This document shows, piece by piece, positions 9,398 to 33,473 of a DNA stretch of 64,000 bases (position 1 is its first letter; each line of letters starts with the position of its first letter). Made by a program: the position numbers and the translations under genes. The notes beneath the pieces are model-generated. The model ran no database searches, had not been told where the DNA came from, and saw only the letters and a program-made list of their open reading frames with translations. Source of the DNA: Clostridia bacterium (lineage in GTDB: Bacteria > Bacillota > Clostridia > Monoglobales > Monoglobaceae); the NCBI GenBank assembly GCA_045645485.1, contig JAZRIX010000020.1, positions 33,681-97,680 of the forward strand, in the 5' to 3' direction.

Positions 9398-9477
9398 GAT
9401 TCTTCGACTACGCTGCCGCTTCTCTCAGAATGACAAAATTACTTCATTTACGGTCATGCTGAGTCTGTCGAAGCATC
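9398..9477. repeat. Two oppositely oriented copies of the GTCAnnnCTGAG..GTCGAAnnnTC hairpin module (family 1)
   Basis: The reverse complement of 9398-9434 is gtcattctgagagaagcggcagcgtagtcgaagaatc. 9453-9477 is gtcatgctgagtctgtcgaagcatc. Both lie in the ispG/rpiB intergenic gap. Confidence 0.8.
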
Positions 9478-13440: not shown

Positions 13441-14199
13441 TTATTTTTTTATTTTGTTTGCACGTCTCGGAAACTGCGAAGAAGTTTCTTTTATCTTTTC
13501 AATAATAACTATTTTTCTAACAATATCCGACTGCGGAATTTTTACTTCTTTTATATCAGTTATTTTTCCGCCCAAAGAACCTATCATTGCCTTTGCGTCA
13601 TCAATTTCTTCATCAACCTCAAACTGTTTGAATGCAGCAAATATTCCGCCCACCTTTACAAAAGGAAGACAATATTCACACAGAACCTTCAGATTTGCAA
13701 CAGCACGCGAAACAGCACAGTCATACTTTTCACGGTACTTTTTGTCTCTTCCTGCCTCCTCTGCTCTTGCATGTACAAATTCTGCATTTTGAAAGGAAAG
13801 TTCACTTGACACTTCACGCAAAAAGCCTATTCTTTTATTAAGTGAATCCATAAAGGTAAAATCAAGGTCACTTCTCATAATTTTTATGGGAACACCGGGA
13901 AAGCCTGCACCTGTTCCAACATCAATAACCTTTGAACCTTCACGTATATCAATTGCACTAAGAGGAACAACACTGTCAAGAAAGTGCTTGACCGAAATAC
14001 CGTCAGGATCGGTTACAGCCGTAAGATTCATTTTTTCGTTCCATTCAACAAGAAGCTGTGAGAACTTTTCAAACTTTTCAATTTTTTCTTCATTTATATC
14101 AAAACCGCTCTCCAAAAGACCGTTTTTTAATATTTCTTTATTCATATCTTTTTCTGCCTTATAAAAATCAGATTTTTCGCTATGTCCCAGAATAACCAA
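13441..14199 (-). CDS. rsmG: 16S rRNA (guanine527-N7)-methyltransferase RsmG/GidB
   Basis: Contains WNEKMNLTAV and the SAM motif VIDVGTGAGFPGVPIKI. The start is uncertain: TTG at 14199 (AAAGGTGAG just upstream) or ATG at 14145 (MNKEILKNG, giving a more typical 234 aa). Confidence 0.88.
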   Translation of the reverse strand: MVILGHSEKSDFYKAEKDMNKEILKNGLLESGFDINEEKIEKFEKFSQLLVEWNEKMNLTAVTDPDGISVKHFLDSVVPLSAIDIREGSKVIDVGTGAGFPGVPIKIMRSDLDFTFMDSLNKRIGFLREVSSELSFQNAEFVHARAEEAGRDKKYREKYDCAVSRAVANLKVLCEYCLPFVKVGGIFAAFKQFEVDEEIDDAKAMIGSLGGKITDIKEVKIPQSDIVRKIVIIEKIKETSSQFPRRANKIKK

Positions 14200-14220
14200 G
14201 ACTCACCTTTACATAAAATC

Positions 14221-14246
14221 GTCACCCTGAGCAAAGACGAAGGGTC
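14221..14246 (+). repeat. Single family-1 hairpin module
   Basis: gtcaccctgagcaaagacgaagggtc, lying between the ferredoxin stop and the rsmG start. Confidence 0.75.
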
Positions 14247-14274
14247 TATTACATTTTTTTATAACTAAAAATTA

Positions 14275-14306
14275 AAAGAGAGTACAACTGACGCAGCACT
14301 CTCTTT
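14275..14306 (-). terminator. Terminator candidate for the ferredoxin gene
   Basis: On the minus strand the stem is aaagagagt/actctcttt with a 14-nt loop, followed by a T-rich run. Confidence 0.5.
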
Positions 14307-14324
14307 AAAAAATTTTGAATTTTA

Positions 14325-14492
14325 TTATGCCTGAGGAGCGTCTACGGGACAAGCACCTGCACAGCTGCCGCAATCAATGCAAGCATCAGCGTCAATAACG
14401 TACTTTCCATCACCCTCAGAAATTGCATCTACGGGACATTCGCCAACGCAAGCACCGCACATGATGCAATCATCACTAATTGTATAAGCCAT
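14325..14492 (-). CDS. fdx: Clostridial-type 2x[4Fe-4S] ferredoxin (55 aa)
   Basis: Hand translation gives MAYTISDDCIMCGACVGECPVDAISEGDGKYVIDADACIDCGSACGACPVDAPQA-like sequence with two CxxCxxCxxxCP motifs (CIMCGACVGECP and CIDCGSCAGACP). A GAGGTG RBS lies 7 nt upstream. It is below the ORF-track length cutoff. Confidence 0.9.
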   Translation of the reverse strand: MAYTISDDCIMCGACVGECPVDAISEGDGKYVIDADACIDCGSCAGACPVDAPQA

Positions 14493-14545
14493 TTTTTTCA
14501 CCTCTTATATGTAATATAGTTATGATGCCATATCATCACAATCAT

Positions 14546-14574
14546 ATAATATATTATTTTAAACAATTTGTCAA
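14546..14574 (-). promoter_or_regulatory. Sigma-A type promoter candidate for the ferredoxin gene
   Basis: On the minus strand: TTGACA (14574-14569), a 17-nt spacer, then TATTAT (14551-14546). Confidence 0.45.
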
Positions 14575-14602
14575 TAAAAAATTTATTTCAATAAACTAAA
14601 AG

Positions 14603-14611
14603 TTATCCACA
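14603..14611 (+). promoter_or_regulatory. Perfect DnaA box TTATCCACA
   Basis: Exact 9-mer consensus. Confidence 0.8.
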
Positions 14612-14972
14612 CAATTCTACTGATAACTTTTTTACTGAAAGTGAATAATTTTTTCTAATTTCTCTGTTTGTGGATTATGTTTATAACTTTTCACACTTAT
14701 CAACATAGATTTAAACATAATCTTTTCCTTTTATATCAACCGTTTCAAAGGTTTTTCACATTATCAACAGCACCTACAATAACTACAACAACACAAATAA
14801 TATATATTATATTTATATTATAAAAATTTTTTTACAACACTTTTTTATTTAAAAATCGCAACCATAAAAAAAAAGACTGTTTTTTTTCTTTTTATATACT
14901 TCTTTTTTAACCTTTTCAAAAGACCATTTACTGTAAAAATAAAAAAAACCCCCCATAAATCGCAAAAAATGA

Positions 14973-15001
14973 TTGATTTTATTACCCACATATGTTATAA
15001 T
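14973..15001 (+). promoter_or_regulatory. Sigma-A type promoter candidate for dnaN
   Basis: TTGATT (14973-14978), a 17-nt spacer containing the TTACCCACA DnaA-like box, then an extended -10 TGtTATAAT (14993-15001). Confidence 0.55.
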
Positions 15002-15053
15002 ATAATCGGCTGAAAAGGATAATATTTTAACCGAAGAAAGGGATTTTTCAAAA

Positions 15054-17546: not shown

Positions 17547-19490
<1,944 letters not shown>

Positions 19491-19516
19491 GACTAATGAC
19501 AAACGATAAATTCAAG

Positions 19517-19658
19517 GCATGCTGAGCCTGTCGAAGGATAAAGTAAGGTCATGCTGAGCCTGTCGGAGCATCTATAAAAAAATAAACAAGATGTTTCGAC
19601 TTCGCCTGCGGCTTCGCTCAACATGACATAACGTCACCCTGAGTTTGTCGAAGGGTCT
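19517..19658 (+). repeat. Composite repeat A upstream of the GIY-YIG gene (four family-1 modules)
   Basis: The modules lie at 19517-19540, 19548-19572, 19590-19627 (inverted, long variant) and 19633-19657. The core 19548-19658 is near-identical to 19995-20104. Confidence 0.9.
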
Positions 19659-19667
19659 GAAAAGAGA

Positions 19668-19919
19668 ATGTTTATTATGTTTTATGTTTATATGCTAACA
19701 AATTATAATAATAATGTATTATATATTGGTGTGACAAACAATCTTGAAAGGCGTTTGTATGAACATAAAAATAAAATAATAAAGGGGTTTACTGAAAAAT
19801 ACAATCTAAATAAACTGGTTTATTATGAAACATCTGATACTCCTGAAGATGCTATAAAAAGAGAAAAACAACTTAAGGGATGGAAAAGAGAAAAAAGAAT
19901 AAACTTATTGAATCATTAA
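19668..19919 (+). CDS. Minimal GIY-YIG nuclease domain protein (UPF0213/YhbQ-like)
   Basis: 83 aa with FYVYMLTN..NVLYIGVTNNLERRLYEHK (GIY...YIG...R...E pattern) and the tail REKQLKGWKREKR, typical of the small stand-alone GIY-YIG family. An alternative ATG lies at 19677. Confidence 0.85.
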   Translation: MFIMFYVYMLTNYNNNVLYIGVTNNLERRLYEHKNKIIKGFTEKYNLNKLVYYETSDTPEDAIKREKQLKGWKREKRINLLNH

Positions 19920-19961
19920 ATCCAAGTTGGGAAGATTTATCAAGTAATTGGTAAAAGTATA

Positions 19962-20104
19962 GTCATCCTGAGCGTAGTCGAAAGATAAAGTATAGTCATG
20001 CTGAGCCTGTCGGAGCATCTATAAAAAACAAATAAGATGTTTCGACTTCGCCTGCGGCTTCGCTCAACATGACATAACGTCACCCTGAGCCTGTCGAAGG
20101 GTCT
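19962..20104 (+). repeat. Composite repeat B downstream of the GIY-YIG gene (four family-1 modules)
   Basis: The modules lie at 19962-19986, 19995-20019, 20036-20073 (inverted, long variant) and 20079-20103. The order and orientation match repeat A. Confidence 0.9.
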
Positions 20105-20136
20105 AAAAAGAATAAAAAGAATAAAGGTGTAAAACT

Positions 20137-20967
20137 ATGAGCAAAGCAGATAAAATCTTTGTGGAAATGTGCAAGGATATAATTGAAGACGGCTGGTCGG
20201 ATGAAGGCCTTGATGTACGTCCGAAATGGGAGGACGGAACTCCTGCACATACCGTAAAAAAATTCGGTGTTGTGAACAGGTATAATCTTGCTGAGGAATT
20301 TCCAATTTTGACTCTCCGTCCCACATATCTCAAAAGTGCTATTGATGAAATTCTCTGGATATGGCAGAAAAAATCAAATAATATCAAGGATTTGAAAAGT
20401 CATATATGGGACAGCTGGGCTGATGAAAACGGCTCAATCGGAAAAGCCTACGGCTATCAGATGGGTGTAAAGCACAAATACAAAGAGGGCGAGTTTGATC
20501 AGGTTGACAGAGTTCTTTTTGACCTGAAAAACAATCCTCAAAGCCGCAGAATTATGACAAATATATATGTGCATCAGGATTTGAATGAAATGAATCTTTA
20601 TCCCTGTGCATACAGTATGACATTCAATGTTACTGGAAACAAGCTGAATACAATTCTTAATCAGCGTTCTCAGGATACATTGACTGCAAACAGTTGGAAT
20701 GTTTGTCAGTATGCAGTGCTTACACATATGTTTGCACAGGTAAGCGGTCTTGAAGTAGGCGAATTTGTTCATGTTATTGCCGATGCTCATATTTATGACA
20801 GACATATTCCTCTTGTTGAGGAGCTTATCAGCCGTGAACAGTTTGATGCACCGAAGCTTATAATCAACAAGGATATAAAGAATTTCTATGATTTTACTCC
20901 CGATGACTTTGTACTTGAAAATTACAAAGCCGGTGAACAGATAAAAAATATTCCCGTTGCAATTTAA
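20137..20967 (+). CDS. thyA: Thymidylate synthase (ThyA type)
   Basis: 276 aa with EFPILTLRPTYLKSAIDEILWIWQ, RRIMTNIY, the catalytic-Cys context LYPCAYSMTFNV, and LNQRSQD. Confidence 0.95.
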   Translation: MSKADKIFVEMCKDIIEDGWSDEGLDVRPKWEDGTPAHTVKKFGVVNRYNLAEEFPILTLRPTYLKSAIDEILWIWQKKSNNIKDLKSHIWDSWADENGSIGKAYGYQMGVKHKYKEGEFDQVDRVLFDLKNNPQSRRIMTNIYVHQDLNEMNLYPCAYSMTFNVTGNKLNTILNQRSQDTLTANSWNVCQYAVLTHMFAQVSGLEVGEFVHVIADAHIYDRHIPLVEELISREQFDAPKLIINKDIKNFYDFTPDDFVLENYKAGEQIKNIPVAI

Positions 20968-30692: not shown

Positions 30693-30718
30693 GTCACCCT
30701 GAGCGCAGTCGAAGGGTC
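30693..30718 (+). repeat. Single family-1 hairpin module
   Basis: gtcaccctgagcgcagtcgaagggtc, lying between smpB and ssrA. Confidence 0.75.
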
Positions 30719-30757: not shown

Positions 30758-31105
30758 GGGGGCGTAATGGTTTCGACGGGGATTTTGAAGTATCTGGAGC
30801 GAGCCGCAGTGGGCAGCTGCGAAAAAATGTCCAACTAAAATTAAACGCTAACAATAATTTAGCTTACGCTGCCTAAGTAATAGGCGCTGTCCTTCCCTGA
30901 TTACCGCGCTCGGGGGCAAGGGCATCAAAACAGCGGTGAACGTGAACAGGCAAAGCTTTGAGTCTGTCATGAATCAATGAAGCTACCGTCAGCTGTAGCC
31001 TGTCTTTGGGCGGCAGCTGTGGGGAATCTCAAACAAAGACTACGCTCGTAGTGCCGGATATGAATAGATTTTCGGACAGGGGTTCAACTCCCCTCGCCTC
31101 CACCA
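30758..31105 (+). ncRNA. ssrA: tmRNA (SsrA), 348 nt
   Basis: The 5' GGGGGCG pairs with the 3' CGCCTCC-ACCA, including the G3:U Ala identity pair. The sequence GGTTTCGACGGGG lies near the 5' end, and a T-arm-like GGTTCAACTCCCC lies near the 3' end. The tag reading frame 30847-30876 (GCT AAC AAT AAT TTA GCT TAC GCT GCC TAA) encodes ANNNLAYAA. The gene is adjacent to smpB. Confidence 0.93.
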
Positions 31106-33392: not shown

Positions 33393-33473
33393 GTCATTCT
33401 GAAGGAGCGAAGCTATTTGAAGAATCTTGAATTTTAACACAGTTTAAGAACCTTCGACTACGCTCAGGATGAC
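33393..33473. repeat. Two oppositely oriented family-1 modules
   Basis: 33393-33426 is gtcattctgaaggagcgaagctatttgaagaatc. The reverse complement of 33448-33473 is gtcatcctgagcgtagtcgaaggttc. Both lie between pck and proB. Confidence 0.8.

Follow-up and report, generated by a model that had tools for sequence, protein, structure and literature searches.

The stretch analysed here (the window, that is, all 64,000 nucleotides of contig JAZRIX010000020.1 that were considered) belongs to a Clostridia metagenome-assembled genome (MAG) and carries, between gyrB and thyA, a small GIY-YIG nuclease gene surrounded by clusters of short hairpin repeats. In our assessment, the encoded protein very probably is a member of the Ssn family that is accompanied by its cognate repeats, a variant of the Ssn-related motifs (SRM). 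Read in this way, the locus would consist of an ssn gene, coding for a site-specific single-stranded DNA (ssDNA) endonuclease, within an array of the hairpin repeats that this enzyme recognizes. This kind of system was already described in 2025, including the analogy to repetitive extragenic palindromic (REP) elements and their RAYT genes (Chenal et al., Nat Commun 2025, PMC11893778), and the initial annotation, which knew of no described equivalent, was mistaken on this point. What is new in this instance is the host group, which lies outside those covered in the main text of that paper, a repeat class that lies outside the published pattern, a probably pseudogenised gene copy, and comparative evidence for the turnover of the locus.

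Ssn proteins are single-domain GIY-YIG enzymes (CDD cd10448, GIY-YIG_unchar_3; 94 aa in Neisseria meningitidis), four of which have been characterised in vitro (PMC11893778). They bind a hairpin repeat in ssDNA only, cleaving the strand a few nucleotides on its 5' side, without any action on double-stranded DNA (dsDNA), RNA, or the reverse strand; indeed, N. meningitidis SsnA neither binds nor cuts RNA of the same sequence (PMC11893778). The repeats, known as NTS (CGTCATTCCCGCGMAVGCGGGAATCYRG) and more broadly as SRM, flank the ssn gene and are also dispersed across the genome, and among their positions, cutting depends most on the three bases that precede the palindrome and binding on the C that follows it (PMC11893778). 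In Neisseria, cutting lowers the recombination of repeat-bearing incoming DNA, and SsnA of N. meningitidis reduces transformation by such DNA approximately 5-fold (PMC11893778). The authors likened the NTS-ssnA-NTS layout to insertion sequence (IS) elements, REP/RAYT, and IS200-IS605, and likewise raised the hypothesis that the nuclease spreads the repeats and its own gene; their main text names no Firmicutes (PMC11893778). Apart from this work, we found no description of GIY-YIG genes with flanking repeats in the literature.

The gene in the window, as it now reads, is an open reading frame (ORF) of 83 aa on the forward strand (19668-19919), whose true start is likely the ATG at 19677. Pfam PF01541 (GIY-YIG) covers its residues 4-79 (E 4.6e-19), and this is the only Pfam match, with neither a second domain nor a DNA-binding extension. 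The initial annotation was hence right in calling a GIY-YIG gene without such an extension, while the 83-aa ORF that it described is not the native protein; it missed a frameshift (see below), and the homologs are around 94 aa long. This length equals that of N. meningitidis SsnA, and the homologs cover 94-100% of the frame-corrected query. In a BLASTP comparison, the frame-restored protein shared 51% identity with the SsnA ortholog of Neisseria gonorrhoeae over 85 aa with 0 gaps (E 2e-30), which lies below the limit of E < 1e-10 by which homologs were defined in PMC11893778. The catalytic residues Y8, Y19, and E66 fall on Y6, Y17, and E64 of SsnA with equal spacing in this gap-free alignment and are invariant across the family alignments.

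The structural comparison pointed to the same fold. The AlphaFold2 model of a full-length homolog with 79% identity (P0002; predicted local distance difference test score 92.9) retrieved GIY-YIG folds as all of its best Protein Data Bank (PDB) matches, with UPF0213 protein BH0048 (1zg2) as the nearest solved one. One could consider that the gene belongs to another GIY-YIG group, either the homing endonucleases (free-standing or within an intron) or the repair nucleases of the UPF0213/YhbQ-Slx1 type, and besides the structural proximity of BH0048, there are weak PHROG matches to homing endonucleases and an N-terminal match to the group I intron endonuclease model TIGR01453 (22.7 bits) that would fit. 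However, the latter score is far under the 56-bit cut-off and concerns residues 7-42 only, neither a DNA-binding domain nor an intron is present, and the sequence match to BH0048 (E 0.064) compares poorly with that to SsnA, such that we consider this alternative highly improbable. We assigned the protein to the Ssn family because of this difference in E-values together with the aligned catalytic residues. Searches of NCBIfam, PADLOC, and PHROGs did not place the ORF in a specific family, their matches being weak and limited to generic GIY-YIG or homing-endonuclease entries, and a sequence search of the PDB returned no Ssn structure; a match to STING in this search was dismissed as spurious. 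An exact look-up of the ORF protein (P0001) and of the window's ThyA gave no identical record.

The gonococcal reference was identified by a tblastn search of PLSDB, which gave matches in two complete N. gonorrhoeae chromosomes. We consider this match the SsnA ortholog because the single matching place is surrounded by 11 canonical NTS copies, counted over 1.5 kb on each side, and because its reading frame fits the published SsnA numbering, with Y6, Y17, and E64 and an end at residue 94. The two chromosomes (NZ_CP119142.1 and NZ_CP119140.1; 2.17 Mb) are filed as plasmids in this database. In the locus used (NZ_CP119142.1, 1880219-1883473, with ssnA at about 1494-1773 of this segment), the gene has no in-frame ATG, as the ATG at 1494 lies in a different frame from the conserved one, which runs from ~1498 onwards, and the longest ORF comprises 71 aa from a TTG; judged by its sequence, this gonococcal copy may be disrupted at its 5' end.

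The length of 83 aa in the window is explained by a 1-nt deletion in an A-run, the native length being 94 aa. Indeed, DNA alignment with intact genes showed that 1 nt is missing from the A6 run at 19891-19896 (forward strand), and the window ORF departs from its homologs after WKREK and soon reaches a stop codon, while every aligned homolog goes on with LIExxNPxWxDLS. The displaced frame downstream (19901-19954, forward strand) still encodes the conserved C-terminus, KLIESLNPSWEDLSSNW followed by a stop, as seen by translation and as a second high-scoring pair in tblastn. The intact relatives read straight through the A-run, with A7 in locus L082 and with a G interrupting the run in locus L088. 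Programmed frameshifting at this run was considered and is unlikely, since there are only six A's, which are not in X XXY YYZ phase. The lost ~20 C-terminal residues make up most of helix 71-81 and the terminal helix 88-91 in the AlphaFold model of P0002, and this segment holds the invariant residues L77, N82, and W85. As the conserved last ~20 residues are replaced, structure and conservation together suggest that the window copy is rather likely inactive. The neighbouring housekeeping genes are all of equal length in the relatives, and we judged the frameshift more likely real than an artefact because an assembly with such intact gene lengths does not look riddled with homopolymer errors. 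The frameshifted copy therefore represents a natural C-terminal truncation that can be compared with the restored protein.

The gene is bracketed by two composite direct repeats on the forward strand, a left one of ~136 bp (19530-19665) and a right one (19977-20111), both recovered by repeat search. The two copies follow each other with a period of 446/447 bp and share 93.4% identity over 136/135 nt, with a single 1-nt indel; where they differ, it is in the spacer rich in A and at two bases of the final module. Each composite contains a module a (+), a longer module b (-), and a module c (+), all located by module search. Module a (left, 19548-19572; right, 19995-20019) reads GTC-ATGCT-GAGCCTGTCGG-AGCAT-C in the left copy, module b (left, 19590-19627; right, 20036-20073) reads GTCATGTTGAGCGAAGCCGCAGGCGAAGTCGAAACATC on the reverse strand of the left copy, and module c (left, 19633-19657; right, 20079-20103) has the form GTC-ACCCT-...-AGGGT-C and lies, on the left, 10 nt upstream of the ORF. 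A degenerate module lies ahead of each composite, namely m0 at 19516-19540 (+, GGCATGCTGAGCCTGTCGAAGGATA; 3 mismatches to the module consensus, 1 mismatch in the stem, and GGC in place of the 5' GTC) and m0' at 19962-19986 (+, GTCATCCTGAGCGTAGTCGAAAGAT), which has essentially no fold. In the minimum free energy fold of the ssDNA, modules a and b pair with each other, giving a single long hairpin with imperfections (-17.4 kcal/mol, z -2.3). The near-identical direct repeats, the diverged module preceding each of them, and the pairing of two opposed modules had all been read from the sequence by the initial annotation, and all were confirmed.

Oriented hairpin repeats of 20-50 nt, with GTC at their 5' side and C behind the stem, are therefore present on both sides of the window's ssn gene. 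Their shared frame consists of GTC, a 5-nt arm starting with A-Y, a variable core, a complementary arm ending with R-T, and a C, and the arms vary in a compensatory manner (ATGCT/AGCAT, ACCCT/AGGGT, ATTCT/AGAAT, and ATGTT/AACAT). By this structural definition, the window contains 14 modules versus 1.9 +/- 1.2 in dinucleotide shuffles, and nine of them, versus 0 in the shuffles, carry an inner GA...GA signature. The module cores of the window (GCCTGTC, GTTTGTC, and GCGCAGTC) are mostly less canonical members of the class. Beyond the ssn locus, six further modules are found in four intergenic gaps of the window; the dispersal of the modules had been noted before, even though the 'five or more other intergenic sites' given at that time turned out to be six modules in four gaps.

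To see the gene and its repeats in a broader context, we compared the 80 most similar ssn loci from reference genomes (52-69% protein identity), which span Clostridia, Alpha-, Gamma-, and Deltaproteobacteria, Chloroflexi, Acidobacteria, Patescibacteria, Cyanobacteria, Verrucomicrobia, Planctomycetes, and others. Modules occurred within 400 bp of ssn in 72 of the 80 loci and on both sides of the gene in 54 of them, and the module density amounted to 3.87 per kb near ssn versus 0.23 per kb in the distal flanks, a 16-fold difference. The question raised by the initial annotation, whether other copies of the gene are also flanked by repeats, can thus be answered with yes for most of these loci, and its proposal that nuclease and repeats form one REP/RAYT-like system is supported by the same numbers. 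Its alternative was a chance juxtaposition, in which an unrelated small nuclease gene merely landed between existing repeat clusters. The closest relatives of the window do lack the gene at this site while retaining decayed modules there, meaning that the repeats can exist independently of it. Yet, the same module frame recurs beside ssn in those 72 loci, in unrelated contexts and phyla and with the aforementioned local enrichment, and an association of gene and repeats was likewise reported in PMC11893778. We therefore regard a mere coincidence as exceedingly unlikely.

Because the structural search itself imposed pairing, we also ran a covariation test that was anchored on unpaired bases only (GTC...GA...GR...C) and in which pairing was not imposed. 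Here, 26% of the hits were fully paired versus 1.9% when partners were permuted, and nine compensatory arm types were well populated. In unconstrained 7-nt cores, the two closing pairs were of the Watson-Crick type in 97% and 88%, with G-C, C-G, and A-T alternating, and a GNA triloop was present in 74% of these cores; GA brackets stood on each side (GA-GCGAAGC-GA, GA-CCGAAGG-GA). Most modules of the clade have GCGAAGC, GCGCAGC, GCGTAGC, CCGAAGG, or ACGAAGT as their inner core. From the sequences, the repeats of the window are best described as a structural variant of the SRM, with a 5-bp stem, tandem GA, and an inner GNA mini-hairpin. GCGNAGC is a classic hyperstable DNA mini-hairpin (PMC13037366, PMC3201870), which fits a target that is read as DNA and not as RNA, and we infer that the mini-hairpin may have a role in recognition.

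Several points weigh against the assignment of the window locus to the Ssn/SRM system. The published SRM pattern, HGTCWYN(0-2)YYVSBRHN(0-5)WNVSBRGN(0-2)RNCYNB, did not match anywhere in the window (0.14 matches expected by chance) or near ssn in any of the 80 relatives, whereas 8 NTS copies were recovered in the gonococcal locus as a positive control. The window modules are at least 2-3 substitutions away from this pattern, which, when loosened to that extent, is no longer specific, and the assignment of the repeats as cognate is based on a structural definition made in this analysis. Moreover, single modules fold weakly (approximately -2.5 kcal/mol, z ~0) compared to the NTS (-9.2 kcal/mol), as calculated with nearest-neighbour DNA models, which give no credit to tandem G.A pairs or GNA mini-hairpins. 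Furthermore, the protein that served as reference comes from N. gonorrhoeae and is not SsnA of N. meningitidis, and its 5' end looks disrupted in the strain used. Lastly, the frameshift may stem from an error of assembly, and the genome may hold an intact ssn copy beyond the 64-kb window.

Hairpins that lie between genes and show compensatory changes in their stems would, taken alone, be as compatible with RNA as with DNA. The modules could accordingly act as RNA, be it as untranslated-region elements, terminators, or small RNAs, with the nuclease being involved in RNA processing. However, searches of Rfam at the gathering threshold (whole window) and at a permissive threshold (locus) revealed no family matching the modules, and the promoter/terminator scan predicted no terminator at the locus, the modules being devoid of terminator-like T tracts and occurring in both orientations relative to the neighbouring genes. 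Promoter-like matches fell inside the AT-rich ORF, which made the promoter scan uninformative. Considering also the GCGNAGC/GNA core, a hyperstable DNA mini-hairpin, and the inactivity of N. meningitidis SsnA on RNA, a function of the modules at the RNA level seems very unlikely to us.

The commonest layout of the modules around the gene is bounded by inverted repeats. In 46 of 64 loci, the closest module upstream of ssn is in sense orientation, and in 44 of 62, the closest one downstream is antisense; both together apply to 34 of the 54 two-sided loci. The direct-repeat layout (+,+) of the window is found in a minority of these (8/54) and recurs in composite arrays (loci L002, L012, and L088). 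Searching metagenome contigs with the module as seed gave 118 of 120 contigs without ssn on the stretch examined (median 5.6 kb), and the two contigs with ssn had a module at most 63 bp from the gene, which fits many dispersed repeats and few gene copies. A contig from a soil metagenome contained seven copies of the 25-nt module, six of them forming a perfect head-to-tail array with a 28-nt period (L120, 3291-3539); an array of this type was not seen at ssn loci. In a Dehalococcoidia locus (L072), an NTS-like module with a continuous 8-bp stem (GTCATTCCCGACCCCGATCGGGAATC) is located ~188 nt downstream of ssn amid GA-bracketed modules, and the two repeat classes may coexist or interconvert. The SRM class with a GA-bracketed GNA mini-hairpin may even be the commonest Ssn target in nature, while being invisible to the published pattern. 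As the repeat class used across this clade of the 80 nearest relatives escapes this pattern, published rates of repeat-flanked Ssn genes and of repeat-rich genomes are possibly too low, and the range of enzyme/site pairs that are of interest as ssDNA tools would be wider than the pattern suggests.

The immediate relatives of the window share the backbone dnaN-recF-remA-like-gyrB-thyA-folA and differ in two slots, one between the remA-like gene and gyrB and the other between gyrB and thyA. In L092 (GyrB 94% identical to that of the window at the amino acid level), there is no ssn in the first slot, and the second comprises 12 bp without a module. L089-L091 (GyrB 96%) have no ssn in either slot, the second one consisting of 97 bp with two decayed modules. 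The window itself has 47 bp without a module in the first slot and composite-ssn(frameshifted)-composite in the second. L088 (GyrB 91%) carries composite-ssn-composite in the second slot and a gene-less copy of the same composite in the first, and L082-L087 (GyrB 92%) carry SRM(+)-ssn-SRM(-) in the first slot and 98 bp without a module in the second. Of the decayed modules in L089-L091, one is without its 3' C and the other one (GTCACCTTTAGCGTAGTCGAAGGGTC) has the rare ACCCT/AGGGT arms and lies next to thyA; as arm type and position are the same, it is probably orthologous to the right module c of the window. The small clade of gut or rumen Clostridia around the window hence forms a comparative series: the site may be bare, may retain decayed repeats but not the gene, or may be filled, and in other members ssn fills the neighbouring site instead. 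In this series, the idea of mobility can be examined.

These differences imply that the ssn cassette was gained, lost, or moved, and that, as far as the sequences tell, it is at the SRM clusters that the gene appears and disappears. Indeed, L082 and L088 have ssn in different slots, while their gyrB DNA is 93% identical. In L088, ~146-bp composites flank ssn and also occupy the neighbouring slot, which contains no gene; these copies are 86-90% identical to each other. L082 and L084 encode Ssn proteins identical to that of L083, and one 56-bp module-bearing segment is present in the former and absent from the latter. This segment (L082, 3316-3371) contains one long module (TAAAAGTAACAGTAAGCG-GTCATCCTGAGGGAGCGAAGCGATTCGAAGGATC-TTAA), is precisely missing in L083 between otherwise nearly identical flanks, and has a short imperfect repeat (TAAAAG / TAAAG) at its junctions. 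In L088 (595-5118), composites occupy nearly every origin-proximal intergenic gap (remA-like/gyrB, gyrB/ssn/thyA, thyA/folA, and folA/ABC transporter), amounting to ~18 modules in 6.3 kb versus none in the same origin-proximal region of L089-L092. Insertion into SRM clusters and deletion between direct composites fit the slot differences equally, and recombination between composites is a plausible route for gain, loss, and movement.

A further-reaching explanation, which extends the Ssn/SRM assignment and is compatible with it, would be that the locus is a selfish or domesticated RAYT-like or homing-like unit, in which Ssn nicks SRM hairpins in ssDNA and recombinational repair then copies the cassette or the modules into other SRM clusters. 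Such a process would explain why ssn switches slots, why composites without a gene exist, why a single module is present or absent between strains, and how the system spread across phyla. In its favour are the IS-like architecture of sense upstream and antisense downstream modules at 34 of the 54 two-sided loci, the different slots of ssn despite 93% identical gyrB and its absence from the closest relatives, the composites of L088 that could serve as homology arms, the presence or absence of a single module between strains, and the 52-69% protein identity across very distant phyla, which suggests horizontal spread. However, the GIY-YIG fold hydrolyses DNA, so that the protein could not transpose DNA alone. 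We know of no covalent intermediate or strand transfer for GIY-YIG enzymes, and since they are known only to hydrolyse DNA, any mobility would have to occur via host recombination. Moreover, no target-site duplication or defined ends were found at the cassette, repeated deletions between direct repeats would explain the patchy distribution just as well, and the data contain no link from the nuclease to the rearrangements. That Ssn activity drives the spread of repeats or gene is therefore speculative, and we consider a homing-like unit possible but rather doubtful.

Returning to the Ssn/SRM assignment, the function of the system can be proposed from the homology with the four characterised Ssn enzymes. 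The full-length 94-aa protein would bind the module only in ssDNA, by recognizing the invariant 5' GTC and the C behind the stem along with the hairpin itself. It would then hydrolyse the strand a few nucleotides 5' of the module in a Mg2+-dependent manner and be inactive on dsDNA, RNA, and the opposite strand. The scattered intergenic modules would mark cut sites on ssDNA, which could be incoming transforming or conjugating DNA as well as replication or repair intermediates. From the characterised homologs, we infer a role of Ssn in limiting or shaping ssDNA recombination.

The ssn locus is located ~5 kb to the right of a probable chromosomal replication origin at 14200-15053, as predicted from sequence features. 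The GC skew changes its sign at ~14-15 kb, and the gene orientation flips between rsmG/gidB (13441-14199, -) and dnaN (15054, +). The 850-bp gap in between contains five DnaA-box-like 9-mers, of which the one at 14603 is perfect and those at 14669, 14697, 14761, and 14982 have one mismatch each; no dnaA gene adjoins dnaN. To the right of this origin, 9 of 12 modules, which are not independent of each other, are in (+) sense, corresponding to the lagging-strand template. The left neighbour of the cassette is gyrB (17559-19490, +; Pfam DNA_gyraseB, Toprim, HATPase_c), whose product is 96% identical to GyrB of uncultured Clostridia/Ruminococcaceae MAGs, and the right neighbour is thyA (20137-20967, +; Pfam Thymidylat_synt, E 1e-89). 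A decayed module with the same arms is found in L089-L091 at the position of the right module c. The dispersed modules comprise a pair in an intergenic gap (9398-9434, -, and 9453-9477, +; together 9398-9477), one at the edge of the probable origin gap (14221-14246, +; module search), one between the smpB stop codon and the transfer-messenger RNA (tmRNA) gene (30693-30718, +; module search), and a convergent pair in another intergenic gap (33393-33426, +, and 33448-33473, - with 1 stem mismatch; together 33393-33473). The smpB stop (30661) and the tmRNA gene (30758-31105) are separated by 96 bp, and the intact module at 30693-30718 lies within this gap, 40 nt ahead of the mature 5' end of the tmRNA. 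Besides this tmRNA gene, the window also carries a T-box leader.

Among the known systems, the Ssn/NTS-SRM system is closest to the window locus. Both have a single-domain GIY-YIG protein of ~94 aa with Tyr/Tyr/Glu at identical spacing (51% identity to the gonococcal ortholog), and both have oriented hairpin repeats that start with GTCAY, end with RTC, and occur around the gene as well as in other intergenic DNA, which within the window means four gaps. Indeed, the NTS frame (CGTCATTCCCGCG...GCGGGAATC) is common to the window modules, with GTC and an A-Y stem on one side and an R-T stem and C on the other, and the gonococcal gene is also flanked by arrays of alternating orientation. The shared GTC and 3' C are the very positions to which PMC11893778 assigns the greatest importance for cleavage and binding. 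The repeats differ insofar as those of the window enclose a mini-hairpin within tandem GA on either side and an outer stem of 5 bp, whereas the NTS has a continuous, GC-rich stem of ~8 bp. Further differences are the host, a Gram-positive-type Clostridia MAG, and the frameshift in the window copy. The d(GCGNAGC) mini-hairpin DNA (PMC13037366; GNA triloops, PMC3201870) resembles the cores of the clade in its two closing pairs and GNA loop, while the window's own cores are mostly less canonical.

The other groups resemble the window locus in parts. The UPF0213 proteins (BH0048, 1zg2; Escherichia coli YhbQ) and Slx1/HIGLE are the closest solved folds, and UPF0213 proteins are likewise stand-alone GIY-YIG proteins of ~100 aa; however, the sequence similarity of UPF0213 to the window protein is marginal (E 0.064). 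Slx1 requires its partner Slx4, and we are not aware of any reported association of UPF0213 or Slx1 with flanking hairpin repeats. GIY-YIG homing endonucleases of the I-TevI type share the catalytic domain and the patchy, mobile-looking gene distribution. In contrast to the window's ssn, which is chromosomal and sits between gyrB and thyA, they possess a C-terminal DNA-binding domain, cut dsDNA, and reside at intron or phage sites. Lastly, REP elements and their bacterial interspersed mosaic elements with RAYT genes provide the same picture of a small nuclease gene flanked by short hairpin repeats that are dispersed, often as mosaic clusters, in intergenic regions, and RAYT and TnpA recognize a hairpin in ssDNA, as the window protein would by homology. 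The analogy is confined to the layout. The difference lies in the chemistry, as RAYT and the TnpA of IS200/IS605 are HUH/Y1 enzymes that form a covalent 5'-phosphotyrosine and can rejoin DNA, whereas the window protein has the unrelated, hydrolytic GIY-YIG fold, for which a cut-and-rejoin mechanism is not expected.

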